This document shows positions 3,387-62,065 of a stretch of DNA of 64,000 nt, piece by piece (within the stretch, counting starts at the first letter, position 1; every line of letters begins with the position of its first letter). Under the pieces are notes generated by a model. The model was not told the DNA's origin. It saw nothing but the letters and a program-made list of their open reading frames with translations, and made no database searches. This DNA comes from Alphaproteobacteria bacterium. GTDB lineage: Bacteria; Pseudomonadota; Alphaproteobacteria; GCA-2731375. A program made the translations under genes and the position numbers. Location of the stretch: the NCBI GenBank assembly GCA_040223615.1, contig JAVKFY010000011.1, positions 125,169 to 189,168 of the forward strand, in the 5' to 3' direction.

Positions 3387-4414
3387 CGCGCAGGCTCCAG
3401 CACCTTCACCGGCGAGCCTTCGCGGATCTTGAGCTGGCCGGCGGTGACCACCACGTCACCGGCCACCAGCCCGTCGACGATCTCGGCGCGGCCGTAGGCG
3501 CGCAGGCCGATGCGGATCTCGGTCTGCTTGGCGACGCCGTCGACGACCTTGAACACGAACAGCTTGTCGCCGCGCGGCACGATCGCCTGCTCGGGAATCA
3601 GCACCGCAGATTGCTGGCGTTCGACGATGATGTTGGTCCGCGCGAACAGGCCAGGCTTCAGCACGCCGTCCGGGTTCGGCACCGTCGCGCGCAGCGCCAG
3701 CGAGCGGCCCAGCGGGTCGACCCGCGGGCTGATCGCGGTCAGCGTGCCCTCGAACGCCTGCCCGGGCAGCGCGTCGACCTCCAGCTTCACCACCTGGCCG
3801 ACCGACAGGAACCGCAGGTAGCGTTCCGGCACCTCCAGGTCGATCTTCACCGGATCGATGTCGTCCAGCGTGACCAGGTCGGTGCCGGATTCGACATAGG
3901 CGCCGCGGTCGATGCGGACGATGCCGGCGGTACCGTCGAACGGCGCGGTGATGCGGGTCTTCTGCAGCCGCACCCTGGCGACCGTCGCCGTCGCCTGGTT
4001 GGTCTCAAGCTGCGAGAGCGCCTCGTCGCGGGTACGCGCGGTGCCGGCGCGACGCTGCAGCAGCTCATTGGCCCGGTCGAGGTTCGACTTGGCCAGCTTC
4101 AGGCCGACCTCGGCACGCTGCAGCTCGGCGTTGAACAGCGCGTCGTCGAGCGTGAACAGCAACTGGCCCTGCTTCACCGCCGCGCCGTCCTCGACGCCGA
4201 TCCGGATGACCACGCCGGCGATCTCCGGGCGCACGATGATCGATTTGTCGGCCAGCAGCGAACCGACCGCGTGCACGGTCTCCAGCAAGCTCTCAACCGC
4301 CACCGGCACGGCCTCGACCGGCGTCGGCGGACGACCTTGCGCCATGGCTGCCGACGGCGACGCGAACAAGAGCGCGACCGCCGCCGGGCGAATCCAGCGG
4401 TTCATCGACCTCAT
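3383..4414 (-). CDS. RND efflux periplasmic adaptor (membrane fusion protein, AcrA/MexA family)
   Basis: ORF 3383..4891 with true start at internal Met 160 (MRSMNRWIRPAAVALLFASPSAAMA signal peptide, then coiled-coil/beta-barrel MFP sequence); N-terminal 159 aa of track ORF is R/G-rich artefact. Confidence 0.85.
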   Translation of the reverse strand: MRSMNRWIRPAAVALLFASPSAAMAQGRPPTPVEAVPVAVESLLETVHAVGSLLADKSIIVRPEIAGVVIRIGVEDGAAVKQGQLLFTLDDALFNAELQRAEVGLKLAKSNLDRANELLQRRAGTARTRDEALSQLETNQATATVARVRLQKTRITAPFDGTAGIVRIDRGAYVESGTDLVTLDDIDPVKIDLEVPERYLRFLSVGQVVKLEVDALPGQAFEGTLTAISPRVDPLGRSLALRATVPNPDGVLKPGLFARTNIIVERQQSAVLIPEQAIVPRGDKLFVFKVVDGVAKQTEIRIGLRAYGRAEIVDGLVAGDVVVTAGQLKIREGSPVKVLEPAR

Positions 4415-4497: not shown

Positions 4498-5850
4498 CTA
4501 ACCGGCCGCCGGCAACACCTTGGCATAGTGTGCCAGCGCCCGGTCGATGAAGGCGGCACCAGCGCCCTGGTAGGCCAGCGGATCGAAACAGGCCGCGAGC
4601 GCCTCGGGCGACAGCGCGGCGGCGACCTCGGGCACCTCGGCGAGGACGTCTTTCAGGTGCCGGTCCTCGGCTTGCGCGGCCCGGCACCCGGCTTCGACGA
4701 CCTTCTTGGCCTCGGGCCGCCCGAGGTGCGGCGCCAGCGCCATCATCGCCGCCTCGGCCAGCACCAGGCCCTGGGTCAGGTCGAGATTGCGGGCCATGCG
4801 GGCGGTGTCGACCTCCAGCGTCGCCAGCGCGGTGGCGACTCGCGCCACGGCGCCGGAAGTATGGATGAACAAAGCCGGCAGCGCGATCCACTCGGCATGC
4901 CAGGCGCCGGCGGCACGTTCGTGCTCCTGCTCCGCCGCGCCCTGCACCGCCGGGACCAGTGCGACGGCCTGGCGCGCGGCGGCCAGCGCGAAAAGGGCGT
5001 CCACCGGGTTGCGCTTGTGCGGCAGCGTCGAGGAGCCGCCCTTACCGGCCGCCGGCGCCTCGAACGCCTCCGCCACCTCGGTCTGCATCATCAGGGTCAG
5101 GTCGCGGGCGATCTTGGCCATCGAGCCGGCGAGGCTGCCGAGCTGGCCGGCGACGGCGCCGATCCGGTCGCGTTCGGCATGCCACGGCAGTACCGGCTCC
5201 GGCAGGTCCAGTTCGGCGGCCAGCGCCGCCATGATCTTCAGCCCGTCCTCGGCGCCAAGCGAAGCCAGCGTTCCCGCCGCGCCGCCGAACTGCAGCGCGA
5301 TGGCCTCGGCCCGCAGCGCCCGCAGCCGCTCGACCTGACGTACCGCGAGGTCGAGCCAGCGCGCCGCCTTCAGCCCGAAGGTGATCGGCAGCGCCTGCTG
5401 CAACAGCGTGCGGCCGACCATCGGCGTGTCGCGGTGGTCGCGGGCCAGGCGCGCCGCGGCGTCGGCCAGTGCGGCAAGCTGCGTTTCCAGCAGGTCGAAG
5501 GCGCCGCGCATCTGTAGCGCCAGGCCGGTGTCCATCACGTCCTGGCTGGTGCCGCCCCAATGCACGACCCGGGCCGCCTCGCCCTCCAGCTTGGACGTGA
5601 GGTGCTTCACGAGGGGGATGGCGGGATTGCCGGCGATGCTCATCTCGGCGTACAGCGCCGGCAGGTCGTAGAGTTCGGCCCGGCACTGCGCCTCGATGGC
5701 GTCCGCCGCGGCGGCCGGGATCACGCCAAGCCGGCCCTCGACGCGAGCCAACGCCGCCTCGAAATCCAGCATCGCCTGCACCCGCGCGACATCGTCGAAC
5801 AGCGCCGCCATCGCCGGCGCCCCGAACGCGGCATCGTGCAGCGCACTCAT
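4498..5850 (-). CDS. pcaB: 3-carboxy-cis,cis-muconate cycloisomerase
   Basis: Fumarase/adenylosuccinate-lyase class II fold with GSSTLPHKRNPV signature; follows pcaH-pcaG; start taken at MSALHD (Met10 of track ORF). Confidence 0.85.
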   Translation of the reverse strand: MSALHDAAFGAPAMAALFDDVARVQAMLDFEAALARVEGRLGVIPAAAADAIEAQCRAELYDLPALYAEMSIAGNPAIPLVKHLTSKLEGEAARVVHWGGTSQDVMDTGLALQMRGAFDLLETQLAALADAAARLARDHRDTPMVGRTLLQQALPITFGLKAARWLDLAVRQVERLRALRAEAIALQFGGAAGTLASLGAEDGLKIMAALAAELDLPEPVLPWHAERDRIGAVAGQLGSLAGSMAKIARDLTLMMQTEVAEAFEAPAAGKGGSSTLPHKRNPVDALFALAAARQAVALVPAVQGAAEQEHERAAGAWHAEWIALPALFIHTSGAVARVATALATLEVDTARMARNLDLTQGLVLAEAAMMALAPHLGRPEAKKVVEAGCRAAQAEDRHLKDVLAEVPEVAAALSPEALAACFDPLAYQGAGAAFIDRALAHYAKVLPAAG

Positions 5851-5909
5851 GGCCGTGCCCGACAGGACGCGGCCCACTTAAAGCTATGAGCGTGCTGTTG
5901 CGCGCTCAT
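5847..5909 (-). CDS. 20-codon upstream ORF (MSAQQHAHSFKWAASCRARP) inside repeated double-hairpin element; start overlaps pcaG stop (TGATG), stop overlaps pcaB start (ATGA)
   Basis: Read directly from minus strand; near-identical uORF present at 61103..61165. Confidence 0.3.
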   Translation of the reverse strand: MSAQQHAHSFKWAASCRARP

Positions 5910-6478
5910 CAGGCGTCGAAGAACACGGTCTCGTCGTCGCCCTGCAGCACGATGCGCAGGCGGTAGACCGGCGGCGTGCCGTCATCGCGCTGTGCGATCA
6001 GGGTGCCGCGACGCGCCTCGGGCACCGAGCCCAGAACCGGGTCGACCTTGTTGGCGCCGTTCTCGTCGGCGAAGTAGAGGCGGGTGTAGGCATGGTTCGG
6101 CATGCCGCGGGCGAAGACCGTCAGGTTCAGGTGCGGCGCCTGCAACACGTTGCCGCGCCCCGGCACCTGGCCCGGCTTGATGGTCTCGAACCAGAAGCAG
6201 CCCTCGGCGTCGGTCGGTGAGCGGCCCCAGCCCTTGAAACTGGCATCGACCGGCTTGTCCTGGGTGTCGTCGGGATGGTCGTAGCGGCCGGCGGCGTTGG
6301 CCTGCCACACCTCGATCAGCGCGTCCGGGACCACCGCGCCGGCGCCGTCGATCACCTGTCCCTCGACGCGGATGCGGGTGCCCTGCGCGCCAGCTTCGGC
6401 GATATGGTGCCGGTTCATCTGGTCGAAGCCGAGCCGCAGGTAGGGGCCGACGGTCTGCGACGGGGTCTGCATCGGCAT
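5909..6478 (-). CDS. pcaG: protocatechuate 3,4-dioxygenase alpha subunit
   Basis: 189 aa, intradiol dioxygenase alpha-chain sequence (GRYDHPDD, HLNLTVFARG); start 4 nt after pcaH stop. Confidence 0.9.
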   Translation of the reverse strand: MPMQTPSQTVGPYLRLGFDQMNRHHIAEAGAQGTRIRVEGQVIDGAGAVVPDALIEVWQANAAGRYDHPDDTQDKPVDASFKGWGRSPTDAEGCFWFETIKPGQVPGRGNVLQAPHLNLTVFARGMPNHAYTRLYFADENGANKVDPVLGSVPEARRGTLIAQRDDGTPPVYRLRIVLQGDDETVFFDA

Positions 6479-39433: not shown

Positions 39434-40618
39434 TCAGGCGATCTCGAACAGGCCGGCGGCGCCCTGGCCGCCGCCGATGCACATGGTGGCGACGGCGTAC
39501 TTGGCGCCGCGACGCTTACCCTCGATCAGCATGTGGCCGACCATCCGCGCCCCGCTCATGCCATAGGGGTGACCGATGGAGATCGCGCCGCCGTTGACGT
39601 TGAGCTTGTCGGCCGGGATGCCGAGCTGGTCGCGGCTGTACAGGACCTGCACCGCGAAGGCCTCGTTCAGCTCCCACAGGTCGATGTCGTCGACCTTCAG
39701 GCCGGCCCGCTCCAGCAGGCGCGGCACGGCGAAGACCGGGCCGATGCCCATCTCGTCGGGCTCGCAACCAGCCACCGCGAAGCCACGGAAGATGCCGAGC
39801 GGCTGGAGGCCGCGCTGCTCGGCGAGCTTGGCGTCCATCACCACACAGGCCGACGCGCCGTCGGAAAGCTGGCTGGCGTTGCCGGCGGTGATGTGGCCGT
39901 CCGGGCCGGTCACCGGCTCCAGCGCGGCCAGGCCCTCCGCGTTGGTCGACGGGCGGTTGCCCTCGTCCTTGGTCAGCGTGACTTCTTCCTCGGAGACCTC
40001 GCCCGTCTCCTTGTTCTGCACCAGCTTGGTGGTCGGCAGCGGCACGATCTCGTCGTCGAACTTGCCGGCCTGCTGCGCCGCGGCGGTGCGCATCTGGCTC
40101 TGCAGCGCGTACTCGTCCTGGTATTCCCGCGACACGTTGTAGCGGTCGGCGACGCACTGCGCGGTCTGCAGCATGGAGTGGTAGATCGCCGGCTTGTGCT
40201 CCTCGATCCAGGGATCGCGGGCACGGTACTTGTTGGCGTGCTCGTTCTGCACCAGCGACAGGTTGTCGAGCCCGCCGCCGACCATCACCGGCACGCCGTC
40301 GACGATGACGCGCTGCGCCGCCATGGCGATGGTCTGCAGGCCGGACGAGCAGAACCGGTTCACCGTGACGCCCGAGGTGGTCACTGGCATGCCGGCGCGG
40401 ATCGCCGCCTGGCGCGCGATGTTGCCGCCGGTGGCGCCTTCCGGCGCGCCGCAGCCCATGATCACGTCCTCGACTTCGGCCGGGTCGACGCCGGCGCGCT
40501 CGACGGCGTGCTTGATCACATGGCCGCCCATGGTGGCGCCATGGGTGTTGTTGAAGGCGCCGCGATAGGCCTTGCCGATCGGCGTGCGCGCGGTAGAGAC
40601 GATGACGGCTTCACGCAT
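39434..40618 (-). CDS. acetyl-CoA C-acyltransferase (thiolase; possibly beta-ketoadipyl-CoA thiolase)
   Basis: 394 aa from [20 protein letters not shown]; active-site [10 protein letters not shown]-terminal CIGGGQG; GAGGAA RBS. Confidence 0.92.
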
Positions 40619-50794: not shown

Positions 50795-51283
50795 CTAGGC
50801 CGCGGATTCGGCCGGCCGCTTGCGCAACAGGTACTTCTGCTCGCCGTCCAGCACCAGCACGCCGTCCTGATTGTGCACCGTGGCGCGGACCACGACGACA
50901 CCGGTGGTGCGTTGCGGCGTCAGCTCGGTGATCTCCAGCATCGGATACAGCGTGTCGCCGGCGAAGACCGGCGCCAGAAAGCGCGACGACTGCTCGATGA
51001 AGCCAACCAGCGCGTCGCCAACCAGGGCCGGGAACTGGCCGGCGCCGGCCGCCGCCTGGATCAGCACCTGGTACCCGTGCGCCAGCATGTCGCGATAGCC
51101 GCGCGCCTGGCAGTAGGGCCGGTCGTAGTGGATCGGGTGGTTGTCGCCCGACGCGAGCTGGAACGCCGCGAACAGCGCGTCGGTCATGGTCCGCGACGGG
51201 ATCGGGAACTTCTGCCCGAGGCTCAGGTCCTCGAAGAAATGCGGTTCGGCGAGCTGGTGCTCGGCCGGGTTGAAATCGCTCAT
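50795..51283 (-). CDS. MaoC-like (R)-hydratase / dehydratase (hot-dog fold)
   Basis: 162 aa from MSDFNPAEHQLAEPHFFEDLSLGQKF; start overlaps CoA-transferase stop. Confidence 0.85.
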   Translation of the reverse strand: MSDFNPAEHQLAEPHFFEDLSLGQKFPIPSRTMTDALFAAFQLASGDNHPIHYDRPYCQARGYRDMLAHGYQVLIQAAAGAGQFPALVGDALVGFIEQSSRFLAPVFAGDTLYPMLEITELTPQRTTGVVVVRATVHNQDGVLVLDGEQKYLLRKRPAESAA

Positions 51284-56805: not shown

Positions 56806-57294
56806 GCCTTGGCAGCCTCCTTTATCGTTAAGCATTACTAATCTAAAACTCGCAATCCCGTCGCATTCTAGGGGGTCGGTACCATCTAAGATACCAGTGC
56901 CATTCGGCCTCCCCTTCGTAACGTCAACGGCCCTGGCGCCGGTTGGTTCATTCGGGCTACCCGAACGCCACCCAATTCATGACGAATCCACGCAAAATCA
57001 CCATGTTGTTAACCAATTAGAGACAATCGCAGAATAGTTTGAACCTGCATCCCCGTGCATTCCCCGAGTTGCCGCGTACTGGCCGCCCCCATCCGGGAGC
57101 GGCCAGATGGTGACTCCTGGATTCAAACATCAATATCATCAAATATAACTTCGTTAACCATTTCGTCACAACTACAACGTATAATTGATATTGCGTTGAG
57201 TACGAAGCTGACGCTGCGTTTCCGCGCCAGCCGACAAGAACAAGGTCGTCTCGTTGCGTTCGAGTACCCGAGTATAGAATGAAAGACTTCATAA

Positions 57295-57329
57295 GCGACC
57301 GTCGTAATCGGCGGTCGCTTAATTCTCTT
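57295..57329 (+). terminator. intrinsic terminator inside island (GCGACCG-N9-CGGTCGC then TTAATTCTCTTT)
   Basis: Seen in sequence, plus-strand orientation. Confidence 0.4.
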
Positions 57330-57557
57330 TAGAATTTCTTCATCAATAAAAAACGAATACCGCTGTCGCTACAGGCGACGTGACAATCGACACGGCAGCC
57401 CGGTGTGCCGTGGCGCGATACGGCGCGCAGGGCGAGGCAGCGGATTATCGCTAGCGCTTGAAAGCATACACAAAGGGCACGAATGGTCCCGTTGTTAACT
57501 ATTCATCAACGGGGCACTGGTACGGTTCTGCTTGCCACCCAAGCACACCACACGACT

Positions 57558-57652: not shown

Positions 57653-59812
57653 CTATTCGGCGGCCCGCGCCGGCACTTCGATCAGTTCGCGAAGTGCGTT
57701 TTCGACCAGGCGATGACCGGCCCGCTGGTCCAGCGACAGTATCGACTCCGGGTGAAACTGCACCGCGGCCAGCGGCGCGGAGCGGTGTCGCACCGCCATA
57801 ACCAGCTGGCGCTCATTGCGTGCGGTGACATGTAGCTCCGCCGGCACCTTGGCCTCGACGGCGTAGAGTGAATGGTAGGCGCCGACCTGAGCCGGGTTCG
57901 GCAGTCCCTCGAACAGGCCGGAGCCGTCATGTGCCAGAGTCCAGCGCTTGCCGTGGCGCGGCTCCGGCAGGATGCCAAGCTCGCCGCCGAACGCCTCGAC
58001 CATCGCCTGCAGGCCGAGGCAGACGCCGAATTGCGGCACGCCACGGTCCGTCAGCGCGCGGATCAGCTCCGGCGCGCCGAAGTCTGACGGTCGGCCCGGC
58101 CCCGGCGAATGCACCACCAGCGCCGGCCGGTCGCGCAGCAGGCGGTCGACCGCGGTGCCGGCGCGGAAAGTGGTCACCTCGGCGCCGGTCTGGCGGAAAT
58201 AGTCGGCCAGCGTGTGAACGAAGCTGTCCTCGTTGTCGACCATCACCACGCGCACGCCGGCGAAAGGGCGCTCCGGTTCCGGCTCGGCGGCGCGGACGCT
58301 GCCACCCTCCATGGCGCGGAAGAACGACGTCGCCTTGGTACGGGTCTCCTGCTCCTCCTCCTCCGGCACCGAGTCGAAGACCAGCGTGGCGCCGGCGCGG
58401 TAGTGGGCGCGGCCGTCGCGCAGGTGCACGGTGCGGATGGTGATGCCGGTGTTCACGTTGCCGTTCAGCGACAGGACGCCGACAGCGCCGCCGTACCACT
58501 GCCTGGCGGTCGCCTCCATGTCCTCGATCAGGCGCACGGCCATGCGCTTGGGCGCGCCGGTGAGCGTCACCGCCCACATGTGGCTGAGAAAGGCATCGAT
58601 GCCGGTGAAGCCCTCGCGCAACCGGCCCTCGACATGATCAACGGTATGGATCAGGCCGGCGTAGCGCTCGATGTTGCGCCGGGCCAGCAACTTGACCGTA
58701 CCGGGCCGGCAGATGCGCGCCTTGTCGTTGCGGTCGACGTCGGTGCACATGGTGAGCTCGACCTCGTCCTTCTCGGAGTTGAACAGGGCCTTCAGACGGT
58801 CGGCATCCTCCATCGGGTTGGCGCCGCGACGCACGGTGCCGCAGATCGGCGCGGATTCGACCCGGTCGCCGTCGACGCGTACGAACATCTCCGGCGAGGC
58901 GCCGACAAGCTGTTCGTCGCCGAGCTGGAACAGGAATTCGTAAGGCGACGGGTTGATCCGCCGCATCGAGCGGAACAGTGCCGACGGGGCGCCGCGAAAC
59001 GGTGTCGAGAAGGTCCGGCTCAGCACCACCTCGAAGATGTCGCCGACGCGCATGTGTTCCTTCGCCTTGGCCACGTTGGCCTGGTATTCGGCGTCGGTGA
59101 GGTCGGAAACGATGCCGCCCTCCTCGACCGGCCGCTCCTGGCCGAAGGGCGCTTCCGGCCGGGTCGCCATCACCCCCTCGGTGGTGACGGTGCCGAGCTG
59201 GAAAGTGAAGTGGTGGCAGGTCGCGGTCTCCTTGTGCCGATCGACCACGTAGACCCGGTCGGGCAGGAACAACTTCAGGATCGGCCGCTCGGGCTCGCGC
59301 GCCTGGCTCAACCGCATCGGCTCGAAGGTGAAGATCAGGTCGTAGCCGAAGGTGCCGAACAGCCCCAGGAAGGGATCGGGGTAGCCTTCGAACTCGGCCA
59401 GCAGGCGGCGGATCGGGCTCAGCACGGAGGGCTGGCGGCTGCGGTCCTCTTCCGCGAACACCACCTCGGCGCGGGCGATGCGCAGCTTCAGGACGGTGTC
59501 GTCCTGGTGTTCCACGGTGGTCTCCGGCCCGGCGACCAGGATCGGCGTGAGCAGCTTCAGCAGCGGCCGGCCGACCTCGTTCAGCGCCGTCACGGTCAGG
59601 GTCTCGGCGGTGCCCTCGAAGCCGAGCGGCGGCGAGGCGAAGCCCATGTCGAAGCGCGAATACTTGTCCGGATCCTCCACGCCGGAGGACAGGTAGGCGC
59701 CGGGCTCGCGGTCGAGCCGGTCGATCAGGTTGTCGATACCCTGCTCATAGGGCAGGTCGATGATCTCGCGGCCGACGCGCAGGCCGCTGGGGGCAATGAA
59801 TGTCTCGGTCAT
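57653..59812 (-). CDS. trpE: anthranilate synthase, fused component I / glutamine amidotransferase, TrpE(G)
   Basis: 719 aa; chorismate-binding domain plus C-terminal class I GATase with catalytic Cys (GVCLG) and His (VQFHPES). Confidence 0.93.
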   Translation of the reverse strand: MTETFIAPSGLRVGREIIDLPYEQGIDNLIDRLDREPGAYLSSGVEDPDKYSRFDMGFASPPLGFEGTAETLTVTALNEVGRPLLKLLTPILVAGPETTVEHQDDTVLKLRIARAEVVFAEEDRSRQPSVLSPIRRLLAEFEGYPDPFLGLFGTFGYDLIFTFEPMRLSQAREPERPILKLFLPDRVYVVDRHKETATCHHFTFQLGTVTTEGVMATRPEAPFGQERPVEEGGIVSDLTDAEYQANVAKAKEHMRVGDIFEVVLSRTFSTPFRGAPSALFRSMRRINPSPYEFLFQLGDEQLVGASPEMFVRVDGDRVESAPICGTVRRGANPMEDADRLKALFNSEKDEVELTMCTDVDRNDKARICRPGTVKLLARRNIERYAGLIHTVDHVEGRLREGFTGIDAFLSHMWAVTLTGAPKRMAVRLIEDMEATARQWYGGAVGVLSLNGNVNTGITIRTVHLRDGRAHYRAGATLVFDSVPEEEEQETRTKATSFFRAMEGGSVRAAEPEPERPFAGVRVVMVDNEDSFVHTLADYFRQTGAEVTTFRAGTAVDRLLRDRPALVVHSPGPGRPSDFGAPELIRALTDRGVPQFGVCLGLQAMVEAFGGELGILPEPRHGKRWTLAHDGSGLFEGLPNPAQVGAYHSLYAVEAKVPAELHVTARNERQLVMAVRHRSAPLAAVQFHPESILSLDQRAGHRLVENALRELIEVPARAAE

Positions 59813-60908: not shown

Positions 60909-61106
60909 CTACAGCACGAACAGGAACAGCAGGATCACGCCGACGGCGGCGAACTGCAGCAGCACGCGCAACTGCATGAGCTTGTTGGAGCGCCGGTGTT
61001 TCTCCACGCTATCGCCGTCGCGCGCCATGGTGACGACGCCGAACAGCAACACGCCGACAATCGCCACCAGCAGCACGACCATCACGATCGGCAGGGCGGC
61101 GCTCAT
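60909..61106 (-). CDS. twin-transmembrane-helix small protein (65 aa)
   Basis: Two hydrophobic helices separated by MARDGDSVEKHRRSNKLMQLR. Confidence 0.65.
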   Translation of the reverse strand: MSAALPIVMVVLLVAIVGVLLFGVVTMARDGDSVEKHRRSNKLMQLRVLLQFAAVGVILLFLFVL

Positions 61107-61167
61107 GGCCGTGCCCAGCAGAACACGGCCCGCTTATCATGATGAGCGTGCTGCTGCGCGCTCATGG
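61101..61167. repeat. about 65-nt double-hairpin repeat, copy 2 (copy 1 at 5847..5911)
   Basis: Hand alignment: CTCATGGCCGTGCCC(A/G)(G/A)CAG(A/G)AC(A/G)CGGCCC..(8-10)..ATGAGCGTGCTG(C/T)TGCGCGCTCAT, about 85% identical between copies. Confidence 0.6.
61103..61165 (-). CDS. 20-codon upstream ORF (MSAQQHAHHDKRAVFCWARP) inside second copy of double-hairpin element; stop overlaps start of twin-TM gene (ATGA)
   Basis: Read from minus strand; paralogous to uORF at 5847..5909. Confidence 0.3.
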   Translation of the reverse strand: MSAQQHAHHDKRAVFCWARP

Positions 61168-61291: not shown

Positions 61292-62065
61292 ATGATCCAG
61301 TTCTACGATGTCCCGTTCAGCCCGTTCGCGCAGAAGGTGAAGCTCGCACTGCTGGAGAAGGGCCTGGACTACGAAACGCCGCCGGCCGAGCTCGGCCCGG
61401 ACACGCCGATGAAGGCGGTCAATCCGCGCGGCGAGGTCCCGGCGCTGGTCGACGAGGGGCTGGCGATCTTCGACAGCTCGATCATCCTGGAATACCTGGA
61501 GGACCGGTATCCCGAGACACCGCTGCGGCCGGCCGATGCCGCCGGACGGGCCCGCGCGCGGATGATCGAGGAAGTCTGCGACAGCCAGTTCGAGGCGGTG
61601 AACTGGGGCCTGAACGAGATCATCGGCTTCAAGCGCGCCGACGGCGACCTGGCGGCGCGCATCCTGGCCCGGGCGAGCGCGGAGGCGGCGCAGTTGCAGG
61701 GCTGGCTCGAAGGTCAACTCGGCGGCGCCGACTGGTTCAATGGCGCCACCTTCGGCTATGGCGACATCGCGGTCTGGCCCTACGTGCAGACCGCGTCGAT
61801 CTTCAAGCGCGGGCCCGCCGAGGGCTCAGCGCTGGCCGCCTGGCATGGCCGCATGGCCGAGCGCGCCAGCGTGCAGCGGACCATCGCGGAAGTGAAGCAG
61901 GCGCTGCCGCTGATCCGCGAACTGGGCGCGAAGTTCACCAGCGGCCAGGCGGCGCGACAGTTCCGCGACCACCGGCTGGAGTTCATGTTGCGTGCCGGCG
62001 GCGCGGAAGTCGTTACCCGGGGACTGGAGAACGGCACGATCCGGTTCTCCACCCTCCCGGGATAA
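61292..62065 (+). CDS. glutathione S-transferase family protein
   Basis: 257 aa from MIQFYDVPFSPFAQKVKLAL; thioredoxin-like N-domain plus helical C-domain. Confidence 0.85.
   Translation: MIQFYDVPFSPFAQKVKLALLEKGLDYETPPAELGPDTPMKAVNPRGEVPALVDEGLAIFDSSIILEYLEDRYPETPLRPADAAGRARARMIEEVCDSQFEAVNWGLNEIIGFKRADGDLAARILARASAEAAQLQGWLEGQLGGADWFNGATFGYGDIAVWPYVQTASIFKRGPAEGSALAAWHGRMAERASVQRTIAEVKQALPLIRELGAKFTSGQAARQFRDHRLEFMLRAGGAEVVTRGLENGTIRFSTLPG

Follow-up and report, generated by a model that had tools for sequence, protein, structure and literature searches.

Two copies of a 59-nt double-hairpin element were found in the window, i.e., the whole 64,000-nt stretch of contig JAVKFY010000011.1 from an alphaproteobacterial assembly (GCA_040223615.1). 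Copy 1 was located between pcaG and pcaB, and copy 2 directly preceded a gene for a 65-aa twin-transmembrane (twin-TM) protein. The best explanation, which we consider probable, is a short non-autonomous mobile repeat of the repetitive extragenic palindrome (REP)/REPIN type, which inserts at start codons and whose mini open reading frame (mini-ORF) would serve as a relay for ribosomes. The element formed a repeat family with polymorphic insertions, specific insertion sites, covarying hairpins and a conserved reading frame. An earlier note made from the sequence alone (the sequence-only reading) had described the double hairpin and its upstream ORF; it did not notice that the unit lies exactly on stop/start overlaps, that its reading frame is conserved or that the two hairpins are inverted relative to each other.

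Anatomy of the Two Copies

Segments 61099–61165 and 5843–5909 were paired by a repeat finder (family D9) with 82% identity over 67 nt, and the same hairpin/spacer/hairpin/ATGA layout was present in both, in agreement with the sequence-only reading, which had matched copy 2 to copy 1. The element was also found where that reading had placed it (61101–61167), but each end was about 2 nt off, the unit being 61107–61165 and the ATGA 61103–61106. The parts of the two copies were as follows.

61107–61165, minus strand: copy 2, the 59-nt unit of hairpin 1, spacer and hairpin 2 (covariance model, 87.5 bits)
61142–61165, minus strand: hairpin 1 of copy 2 (ATGAGCG C GC AGCA GC A CGCTCAT), including the mini-ORF ATG
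61131–61141, minus strand: 11-nt spacer of copy 2 (CATGATAAGCG), variable and relatively AT-rich
61107–61130, minus strand: hairpin 2 of copy 2 (GGCCGTG T TC TGCT GG G CACGGCC), adjoining the gene ATG
61103–61106, minus strand: ATGA, the native twin-TM start codon overlapping the mini-ORF stop; insertion target
61103–61165, minus strand: mini-ORF of copy 2, 20 codons plus TGA (MSAQQHAHHDKRAVFCWARP)
5851–5909, minus strand: copy 1, between pcaG and pcaB (covariance model, 82.1 bits)
5886–5909, 5875–5885 and 5851–5874, minus strand: hairpin 1, spacer and hairpin 2 of copy 1
5847–5909, minus strand: mini-ORF of copy 1 (MSAQQHAHSFKWAASCRARP), whose TGA overlaps the pcaB ATG (5850–5848)

Read along the minus strand, copy 2 was composed of ATGAGCGCGCAGCAGCACGCTCAT, CATGATAAGCG, GGCCGTGTTCTGCTGGGCACGGCC and ATGA in that order. 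Each hairpin had 24 nt, with a 7-bp basal stem, one non-Watson–Crick position, 2 bp and a 4-nt loop. The spacer sequence was different in every copy, and that of copy 2 was free of stop codons in the frame of the mini-ORF. The TGA of the copy-2 mini-ORF (61105–61103) overlapped the ATG (61106–61104) of the 65-aa gene, as the sequence-only reading had stated, and hairpin 2 occupied the position usual for a Shine–Dalgarno sequence. In copy 1, the first base of the mini-ORF was the last base of the pcaG stop codon (TGATG). Fuzzy matches to either hairpin in the window were confined to these two segments. The covariance model, which was built partly from the two window copies themselves and run with filters off, scored the top unrelated match in the window at 18 bits. 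Weak matches at 40029–40089 and 57289–57318 were judged to be outside the family.

Hairpin Covariation

The covariation of the hairpins was evaluated on an alignment of 13 sequences with 500 shuffles and slid controls. Paired cells amounted to 97.6%, compared with 28–52% for the slid controls, and none of the 500 shuffles reached the observed score. Seven pairs varied on both sides (23 cells), and compensatory changes occurred in both hairpins, while the mismatch, the two apical pairs and the loop were invariant across the alignment. Hairpin 1 and the reverse complement of hairpin 2 were identical at 10 of 12 core bases and 13 of 24 bases overall. Both followed the layout of 7 bp, C.A, 2 bp and an AGCA loop, with basal stems that differed from each other. 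Hence, the unit was an inverted doublet of one hairpin type. On either strand, a C.A mismatch was present in one of the hairpins and a G.U or G.T pair in the other, so that the idea of a strand preference based on these pairs was dropped. The predicted RNA folding energies of copy 2 were −12.7 kcal/mol for hairpin 1 and −17.7 kcal/mol for hairpin 2 (−17.7 to −20.5 kcal/mol for hairpin 2 overall), and hairpin 2 in the RNA was flush with the downstream AUG.

A Dispersed Family in a Sister Genome

The hairpin-1 pattern was scanned against 185,579 species, one genome per species. Nine loci came from one Rhodospirillales metagenome-assembled genome (MAG), GCA_964627965.1, and a full double-hairpin unit was present at each; the remaining matches were palindromes unrelated to the family. 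Looser searches of these loci revealed further units, including tandem pairs in loci L025, L044 and L056. Within the retrieved loci, this MAG contained at least 13 further units of the type in the window (ATG-type, with ATGAGCG/CGCTCAT as the basal stem of hairpin 1) at 10 other loci and one variant. The MAG was a close relative of the window organism, with an adenosyltransferase 92% identical and a syntenic locus. In total, units of the family preceded at least 11 unrelated genes. The suggestion that the element is dispersed rather than a pathway leader was therefore strengthened by the 10 further loci in the sister MAG, which lay between functionally unrelated gene pairs. These data supported a dispersed REPIN-like mobile repeat and not a pathway-specific leader.

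Non-ATG variants, in which the apical sequences of the ATG-type were combined with other basal stems, were detected by the covariance model. Their basal stems covaried perfectly, they were located away from start codons, and the model matched them on either strand at similar scores.

L073, 186–249, minus strand: basal stem GGGGGCG/CGCCCCC, 25 nt after a stop codon
L056, 231–293, minus strand: basal stem GGCGGTG/CACCGCC, the sole variant with GTAG before hairpin 2
L080, 1217–1280, and L084, 67–128 (two metagenome contigs): basal stems GCCGGCG/CGCCGGC and GGCGGGG/CCCCGCC

A subfamily was also observed in which a perfect 19-nt hairpin, CTCGACGCAGTGCGTCGAG, replaced the GTGT of hairpin 2 (L039, 2728–2805; L044, 1399–1550; L088, 4972–5049). 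The replacement added 15 nt and kept the frame. This variant seems to have been propagated despite its disrupted hairpin 2, since it was present at two different loci and as one tandem pair. L088 (Logan SRR34438647, 4972–5064) came from a strain with an E1beta 99% identical to that of the MAG, and the same tandem insertion was present. The contig stopped within the second unit, a typical assembly break caused by repeats; copy numbers from short reads are therefore underestimates.

Several other matches were discarded. Nine of the 11 loci from a generalised core scan of metagenomes were coincidences in coding sequences, the real variants being L080 and L084. Most of the 68 genome matches to a degenerate hairpin-1 pattern were unrelated as well, namely long palindromic repeats of Anaerolineae/Chloroflexia and terminators of Verrucomicrobiales. 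The repeat in the Anaerolineae/Chloroflexia MAGs (L002, L006, L007, L009, L014, L016, L018, L022, L024 and others) was much longer, was present in many copies per MAG (..GCATTTTGGGGT ATGAGCGYGCGTACGCRCGCTCAT ACCCCAAAATGC..) and shared the 7-bp ATGAGCG/CGCTCAT stem by chance. A BLAST search of the consensus unit against 72,556 plasmids gave chance partial matches only.

Insertion Polymorphism

The junctions were compared with those of relatives. In two relatives (L069 and L070) with PcaB proteins 81% identical, the pcaG–pcaB junction read GCCTGAGATGAGCGC, with separation by TGAGATG only and the 59 nt absent. The alignment of the twin-TM/GST intergenic region, which the sequence-only reading had proposed as a check, was also carried out. 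Two more distant relatives (L072 and L073; adenosyltransferase 87% and 82% identical) had an ordinary leader, ..AAGGAGCCTGTG followed by ATGAGCGCG, and no element, whereas the sister MAG (L071) had a decayed copy at the orthologous twin-TM site with two substitutions per hairpin. At the junction between E1beta and E2 of a 2-oxoacid dehydrogenase, two tandem units were present in the sister MAG, and GGCTGATGGGCGAG without any unit was found in GCA_003561165.1. The unit was therefore an insertion, because relatives had empty sites at all three junctions compared.

The insertion of copy 2 is older than the split of the two sister genomes. The DNA identity between the source and sister lineages was 86% at the locus holding the orthologous copy. 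The two orthologous copies (window copy 2 and L071) differed at 4 of 48 hairpin positions and at 5 of 11 spacer positions. Just upstream of the orthologous copy, positions 1167–1177 of L071 read GATAAGCGGCC followed by ATGAGCG, which was close to GATAAGCGGGCC of window 61128–61139 (minus strand), i.e., the copy-2 spacer and the start of hairpin 2. Gene conversion between copies is a possible cause of this likeness. A degenerate second unit upstream of copy 2 was also considered and was rejected, as the sequence there aligned with the 5′ untranslated region (UTR) of relatives without the element.

Placement at Start Codons and Stop/Start Overlaps

Every ATG-type copy was located directly 5′ of the (A/G)TGA start of a gene, usually ATGAG, and was co-oriented with the flanking genes. 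At all 9 MAG sites analysed, a long upstream ORF (182–673 aa from its first start codon) stopped at the TGA of the left (A/G)TGA, and the upstream frame in L025 likewise closed at the left TGA. An ORF of at least 106 aa started at the right (A/G)TG in 8 of the 9 cases, and in the remaining one (L001) only 37 codons preceded the contig end. Overall, 10 of 12 sites had an upstream operon partner whose stop codon was provided by the left-end (A/G)TGA. The flanking pairs carried Pfam matches to livM and livG-like proteins (branched-chain permease and ABC ATPase), FlgI and a rod-binding protein, E1beta and E2, and Fer2_2 and MoCoBD (a [2Fe-2S] subunit followed by a molybdopterin subunit), among others. 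The deduced stops and starts were supported by these domain matches, which reached the protein ends. By Pfam, the flanking genes were genuine operon partners that are functionally unrelated between sites. A palindromic pattern such as that of hairpin 1 ignores genomic context, so that the sample of sites was unbiased for location.

The target seems to extend beyond ATGA: a G followed at base 5 in 9 of 11 occupied sites, whereas among 14 ATGA stop/start junctions of these sequences that carried no unit, it was found in 1 (Fisher p = 2.4e-4). The left end read ATGAGCG in all units but two, in which GTG replaced ATG, even when the right flank was ATGACCG or ATGAGCT. Hence, a target duplication would be limited to 4 bp, and the idea that basal stems were copied from the target at each insertion was rejected for the ATG-type. 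As the element ends in the same bases as its flank, a 4-bp duplication was indistinguishable from insertion beside a fixed CTCAT on the other strand. Furthermore, relatives without the element already began their twin-TM and pcaB genes with ATGAGCGC. The right-hand ATGAG was therefore the native gene start, i.e., the target, and the left-end ATGAGCG was part of the element, namely the near-constant 5′ arm of hairpin 1. The sequence-only reading had suggested that the right end of the element may supply or duplicate the start region; duplication was consistent with these results, but supply was not, because the start is present where the element is absent.

Reading Frame of the Mini-ORF

The body of the unit was 3n+2 nt long and free of stops in one frame, which yielded a mini-cistron of 20 codons between two overlaps. 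Among 15 units, no stop was found in frame 0 (counted from the left ATG or GTG), whereas frame 2 contained 12, all of them in or at the edge of the spacer. When 14 spacers were shuffled, the probability of finding no frame-0 stop was 0.025. Solo units had 59 nt, variants had 62 nt (+3) or 74 nt (+15), and one tandem unit of 60 nt was fused in frame to the unit after it. All of these length variants (+3, +15 and the +1 fusion) left the route between the upstream and the downstream overlap uninterrupted. The decayed L071 copy had lost base pairs and kept the open frame and the ATGA. Frame-0 stops were present in 2 of the 4 non-ATG variants, as read by eye. The peptide ends MSAQQHAH and AVSCWARP were conserved, and the conserved residues matched the hairpin arms exactly. 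Of the 20 mini-ORF codons, 8 differed between the two window copies, and 6 of these changes were non-synonymous. Since the copies share ancestry, frame conservation is supported, not proven. A 40-nt partial unit, consisting of GTGAGCG, spacer and hairpin 2 without the loop and 3′ arm of hairpin 1, was also observed at 3859–3898 of L025.

A Ribosome Relay as the Probable Mode of Tolerance

At most sites, the stop and start codons of two operon partners once overlapped as ATGA or TGATG. After insertion, the upstream gene retained a TGA and the downstream gene its ATG. A ribosome ending the upstream gene could re-initiate on the left AUGA of the mini-ORF, translate 20 codons, melt both hairpins, terminate at the right ATGA and re-initiate on the native downstream start. 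Translational coupling would survive the insertion because the ribosome is proposed to be handed from overlap to overlap, and the mini-ORF would thus be a relay that preserves coupling. In the case of copy 2, the element entered a monocistronic gene (twin-TM) at its start codon, and the mini-ORF now follows the native 5′ UTR. This insertion may lower the expression of the twin-TM gene, because there is no upstream gene, the AUG is paired and the Shine–Dalgarno remnant is poor. The L071 copy, in which substitutions weakened the stems and kept the frame, was compatible with such lowered expression.

The mobilisation of the element may be attributed to an HUH/Y1 enzyme, either a REP-associated tyrosine transposase (RAYT) or an IS200-like enzyme, that recognises folded hairpins of single-stranded DNA. 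We infer such an enzyme from the invariant apices, the obligatory interruption of the stem, the covarying basal stems, the lack of terminal inverted repeats and the hypervariable spacers. Base pairing by the 3′ arm of hairpin 1 (CGCTCAT) may help to select an ATGAGCG-like target. It is also conceivable, at somewhat less than an even chance, that the element is a REPIN-like selfish lineage specialised on ATGA(G) junctions and "translationally transparent", with its relay frame under selection; its left end would rebuild the upstream stop with a restart codon, and its right end would pass the ribosome to the native start.

A number of observations weigh against the mobile repeat with a relay. 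Copy 2 was the weakest case, as it had no upstream gene or ribosome and relay initiation is doubtful there; the Shine–Dalgarno remnant upstream of it (GAAGCGG) was weak. The mini-ORF AUG was paired within hairpin 1 (predicted unpaired probability 0.0–0.18). The partial unit at 3859–3898 of L025, which lay ahead of a full unit, broke the relay frame, and the contig ended within the next unit. The frame statistics were modest, and the copies share ancestry. No Y1 transposase was found by tblastn in about 0.69 Mb with IS200 TnpA and YafM queries, which was a weak and uninformative test. None of GTAG, CTAC, CGTC or GACG was conserved beside either hairpin in the aligned units. The exact hairpin-1 scan gave 0 matches in JGI metagenomes, the ATG-type was seen in two related genomes only, and the copies counted in the source genome were the 2 in the 64-kb window.

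Alternative Explanations

The compensatory changes that conserve the hairpins are also what a host-adopted RNA module would predict. Here, the transcribed hairpins would be useful, the unit would be kept and perhaps spread, and the mini-ORF would be incidental; the hairpins could shield the upstream mRNA from 3′ exonucleases, serve as sites of processing or adjust the relative output of operon partners. All copies were co-oriented with the flanking genes inside transcription units, the orthologous copy had persisted since the split of lineages that are 86% identical at the locus (DNA), and REPs are reported mostly at transcribed positions (PMC3733652). We nevertheless consider this explanation unlikely, as it leaves unexplained why the unit is placed to the exact nucleotide at ATGA(G), why its length is 3n+2 and why its frame is open, and the element was dispensable in relatives at all three junctions compared. 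Moreover, an invariant apex with free basal stems is more like a recognition site for a protein on DNA, and the non-ATG variants were located outside a start-codon context. The flanking (A/G)TGA on both sides of every unit could instead mark the 4-bp target duplication (NTGA) of a cut-and-paste miniature inverted-repeat transposable element (MITE) of a DDE transposon, in place of a single-strand element that depends on hairpins. The unit at 4195–4257 of L056, with GTGA on both sides, is one mutation cheaper under duplication. Apart from ATGA(G), however, the ends CGCGCAGCAG... and ...GGGCACGGCC were not complementary; with no terminal inverted repeats, the element was not a typical DDE MITE, and it was made of two subterminal hairpins with conserved apices. 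This origin is accordingly regarded as quite improbable.

The conserved open frame of 20 codons and the conserved ends MSAQQHAH and AVSCWARP would also be accounted for if the frame encoded a small peptide with a function of its own, or a regulatory leader peptide dedicated to the gene downstream. This reading appears very improbable, given that the conserved residues coincide with the hairpin arms, that 8 of 20 codons differ between the window copies with 6 non-synonymous changes, and that the host genes are unrelated and the element is missing at orthologous loci in relatives. Chance similarity or a local duplication limited to two sites could be entertained as long as only the two copies within the 64-kb window were considered; it was refuted by the 82% identity over 67 nt with a common architecture, the at least 13 further units in the sister genome and the variants in three other sources, and hardly any weight is left to it.

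Comparison with Known Systems

The element resembled REP and REPIN repeats in several respects. Its 24-nt hairpins were short imperfect palindromes in multiple copies, and two related inverted hairpins were joined by a short spacer that differed per copy, as no two REPIN spacers are identical (PMC3337134). Its conserved stem interruption was comparable to the stem "bulge" that is needed by E. coli TnpA_REP (PMC8266576). REP termini supply stop codons to flanking ORFs, and REPs can lie within ORFs (PMC3733652); the left end of the element was at the upstream stop, and variant L073 was 25 nt past a stop in ordinary REP fashion. The described REP palindromes, however, bear an unpaired GTAG or CGTC tag at one end (PMC3733652), which the element lacked. 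A cognate RAYT gene, which REPs typically flank within their genome, was not seen in the 0.69 Mb searched. Its two basal stems were unlike, so that the doublet was unable to form one long hairpin. Furthermore, the ATG-type was fixed to start codons and overlaps with a conserved frame and was not downstream of ORFs.

Miniatures of the IS200/IS605 group follow a fixed target rule, with TTAC for IS608 and TTGAT for ISDra2. The element was similar in that it ended in hairpins on both sides, lacked terminal inverted repeats and had a fixed flank of 4–5 nt; on the plus strand, the unit was 3′ of CTCAT and itself ended in CTCAT. The end hairpins of that group are alike on one strand, whereas those of the element were inverted and flush with its ends, and a search for an autonomous partner element found none. 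REP hairpins near stop codons, in work by Liang, Rudd and Deutscher in Mol Cell in 2015, reportedly stall ribosomes and lower upstream expression via trans-translation. The stable hairpin of the element likewise started within 1–2 nt of the upstream stop, but with an in-frame restart codon on the stop.

Survival in translated regions through compatible length and frame is a feature shared with Rickettsia palindromic elements and intragenic REPs (PMC3733652). Such elements become additional residues of host proteins, whereas the present element stayed a separate mini-cistron between intact genes. Gene pairs whose stop overlaps the next start were strictly coupled in 13 of 14 tested (PMC6728339), and bicistronic design (BCD) leaders are short sequences whose translation ends at a stop overlapping the start of the target gene, so that local structure is opened by the helicase activity of the ribosome (bioRxiv 10.1101/2023.02.09.527918). 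The layout of such ATGA/TGATG and bicistronic couplers was present at both ends of the unit. Unlike BCD leaders, the element was natural, repeated, apparently mobile and without an internal Shine–Dalgarno sequence, and its coupler function is putative. It also differed from leader-peptide or attenuator upstream ORFs in preceding at least 11 unrelated genes and in being absent from orthologous loci. Rfam at gathering thresholds found only tRNA in the window, and permissive scans of both copies gave chance-level matches (≤17 bits). Literature searches revealed no account of a REP- or MITE-like repeat that sits at ATGA junctions and carries a relay ORF, which is absence of evidence only.

Host Genes and Other Features of the Window

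The genes next to the two copies were as follows.

60909–61106, minus strand: 65-aa HIG_1_N twin-transmembrane protein, downstream host of copy 2 (Pfam PF04588, E = 4.7e-10)
61292–62065, plus strand: GST gene, divergent from copy 2
4498–5850, minus strand: pcaB (3-carboxy-cis,cis-muconate cycloisomerase), host downstream of copy 1
5909–6478, minus strand: pcaG (protocatechuate 3,4-dioxygenase alpha subunit), host upstream of copy 1

Copy 2 had no co-directional upstream gene, because the GST gene is divergently transcribed. An unoccupied ATGAG stop/start overlap (..gagaggacggcATGAGCGATTTC) was observed between two long ORFs at 51279–51283 (minus strand), and the potential targets in the source genome are therefore not saturated. 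At 57050–57350, an AT-rich island of about 240 nt was located in GC-rich surroundings, downstream of an anthranilate-synthase-like gene (57653–59812, minus strand). It contained two GC-rich hairpins, GCGACCGCCGATTACGACGGTCGC near 57297–57320 and GGCCGCTCCCGGATGGGGGCGGCC near 57081–57104. The island could hold terminators together with a small RNA, or it could be left over from foreign DNA.

Implications

Repeats of the REP/REPIN type are already known; what is unusual here is the occupancy of stop/start junctions with the path of the ribosome kept open. Palindromic repeats of small size are commonly reported from the spare space that separates genes, whereas the ATG-type occupied junctions without slack, apparently with translational coupling left intact. 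For annotation, this means that the intervals of 58–75 nt separating operon genes in these genomes are insertions and that the ORFs of 20–25 codons within them are not ordinary genes. If the relay is true, it would show a route by which a mobile element can colonise the interior of operons. It would also represent a natural translational coupler working across two stable hairpins and a simple test system for termination–reinitiation, with mutants of start, stop, frame and hairpins. If the lineage is indeed translationally transparent, the element would be a natural mobile counterpart of the engineered bicistronic translational coupler.

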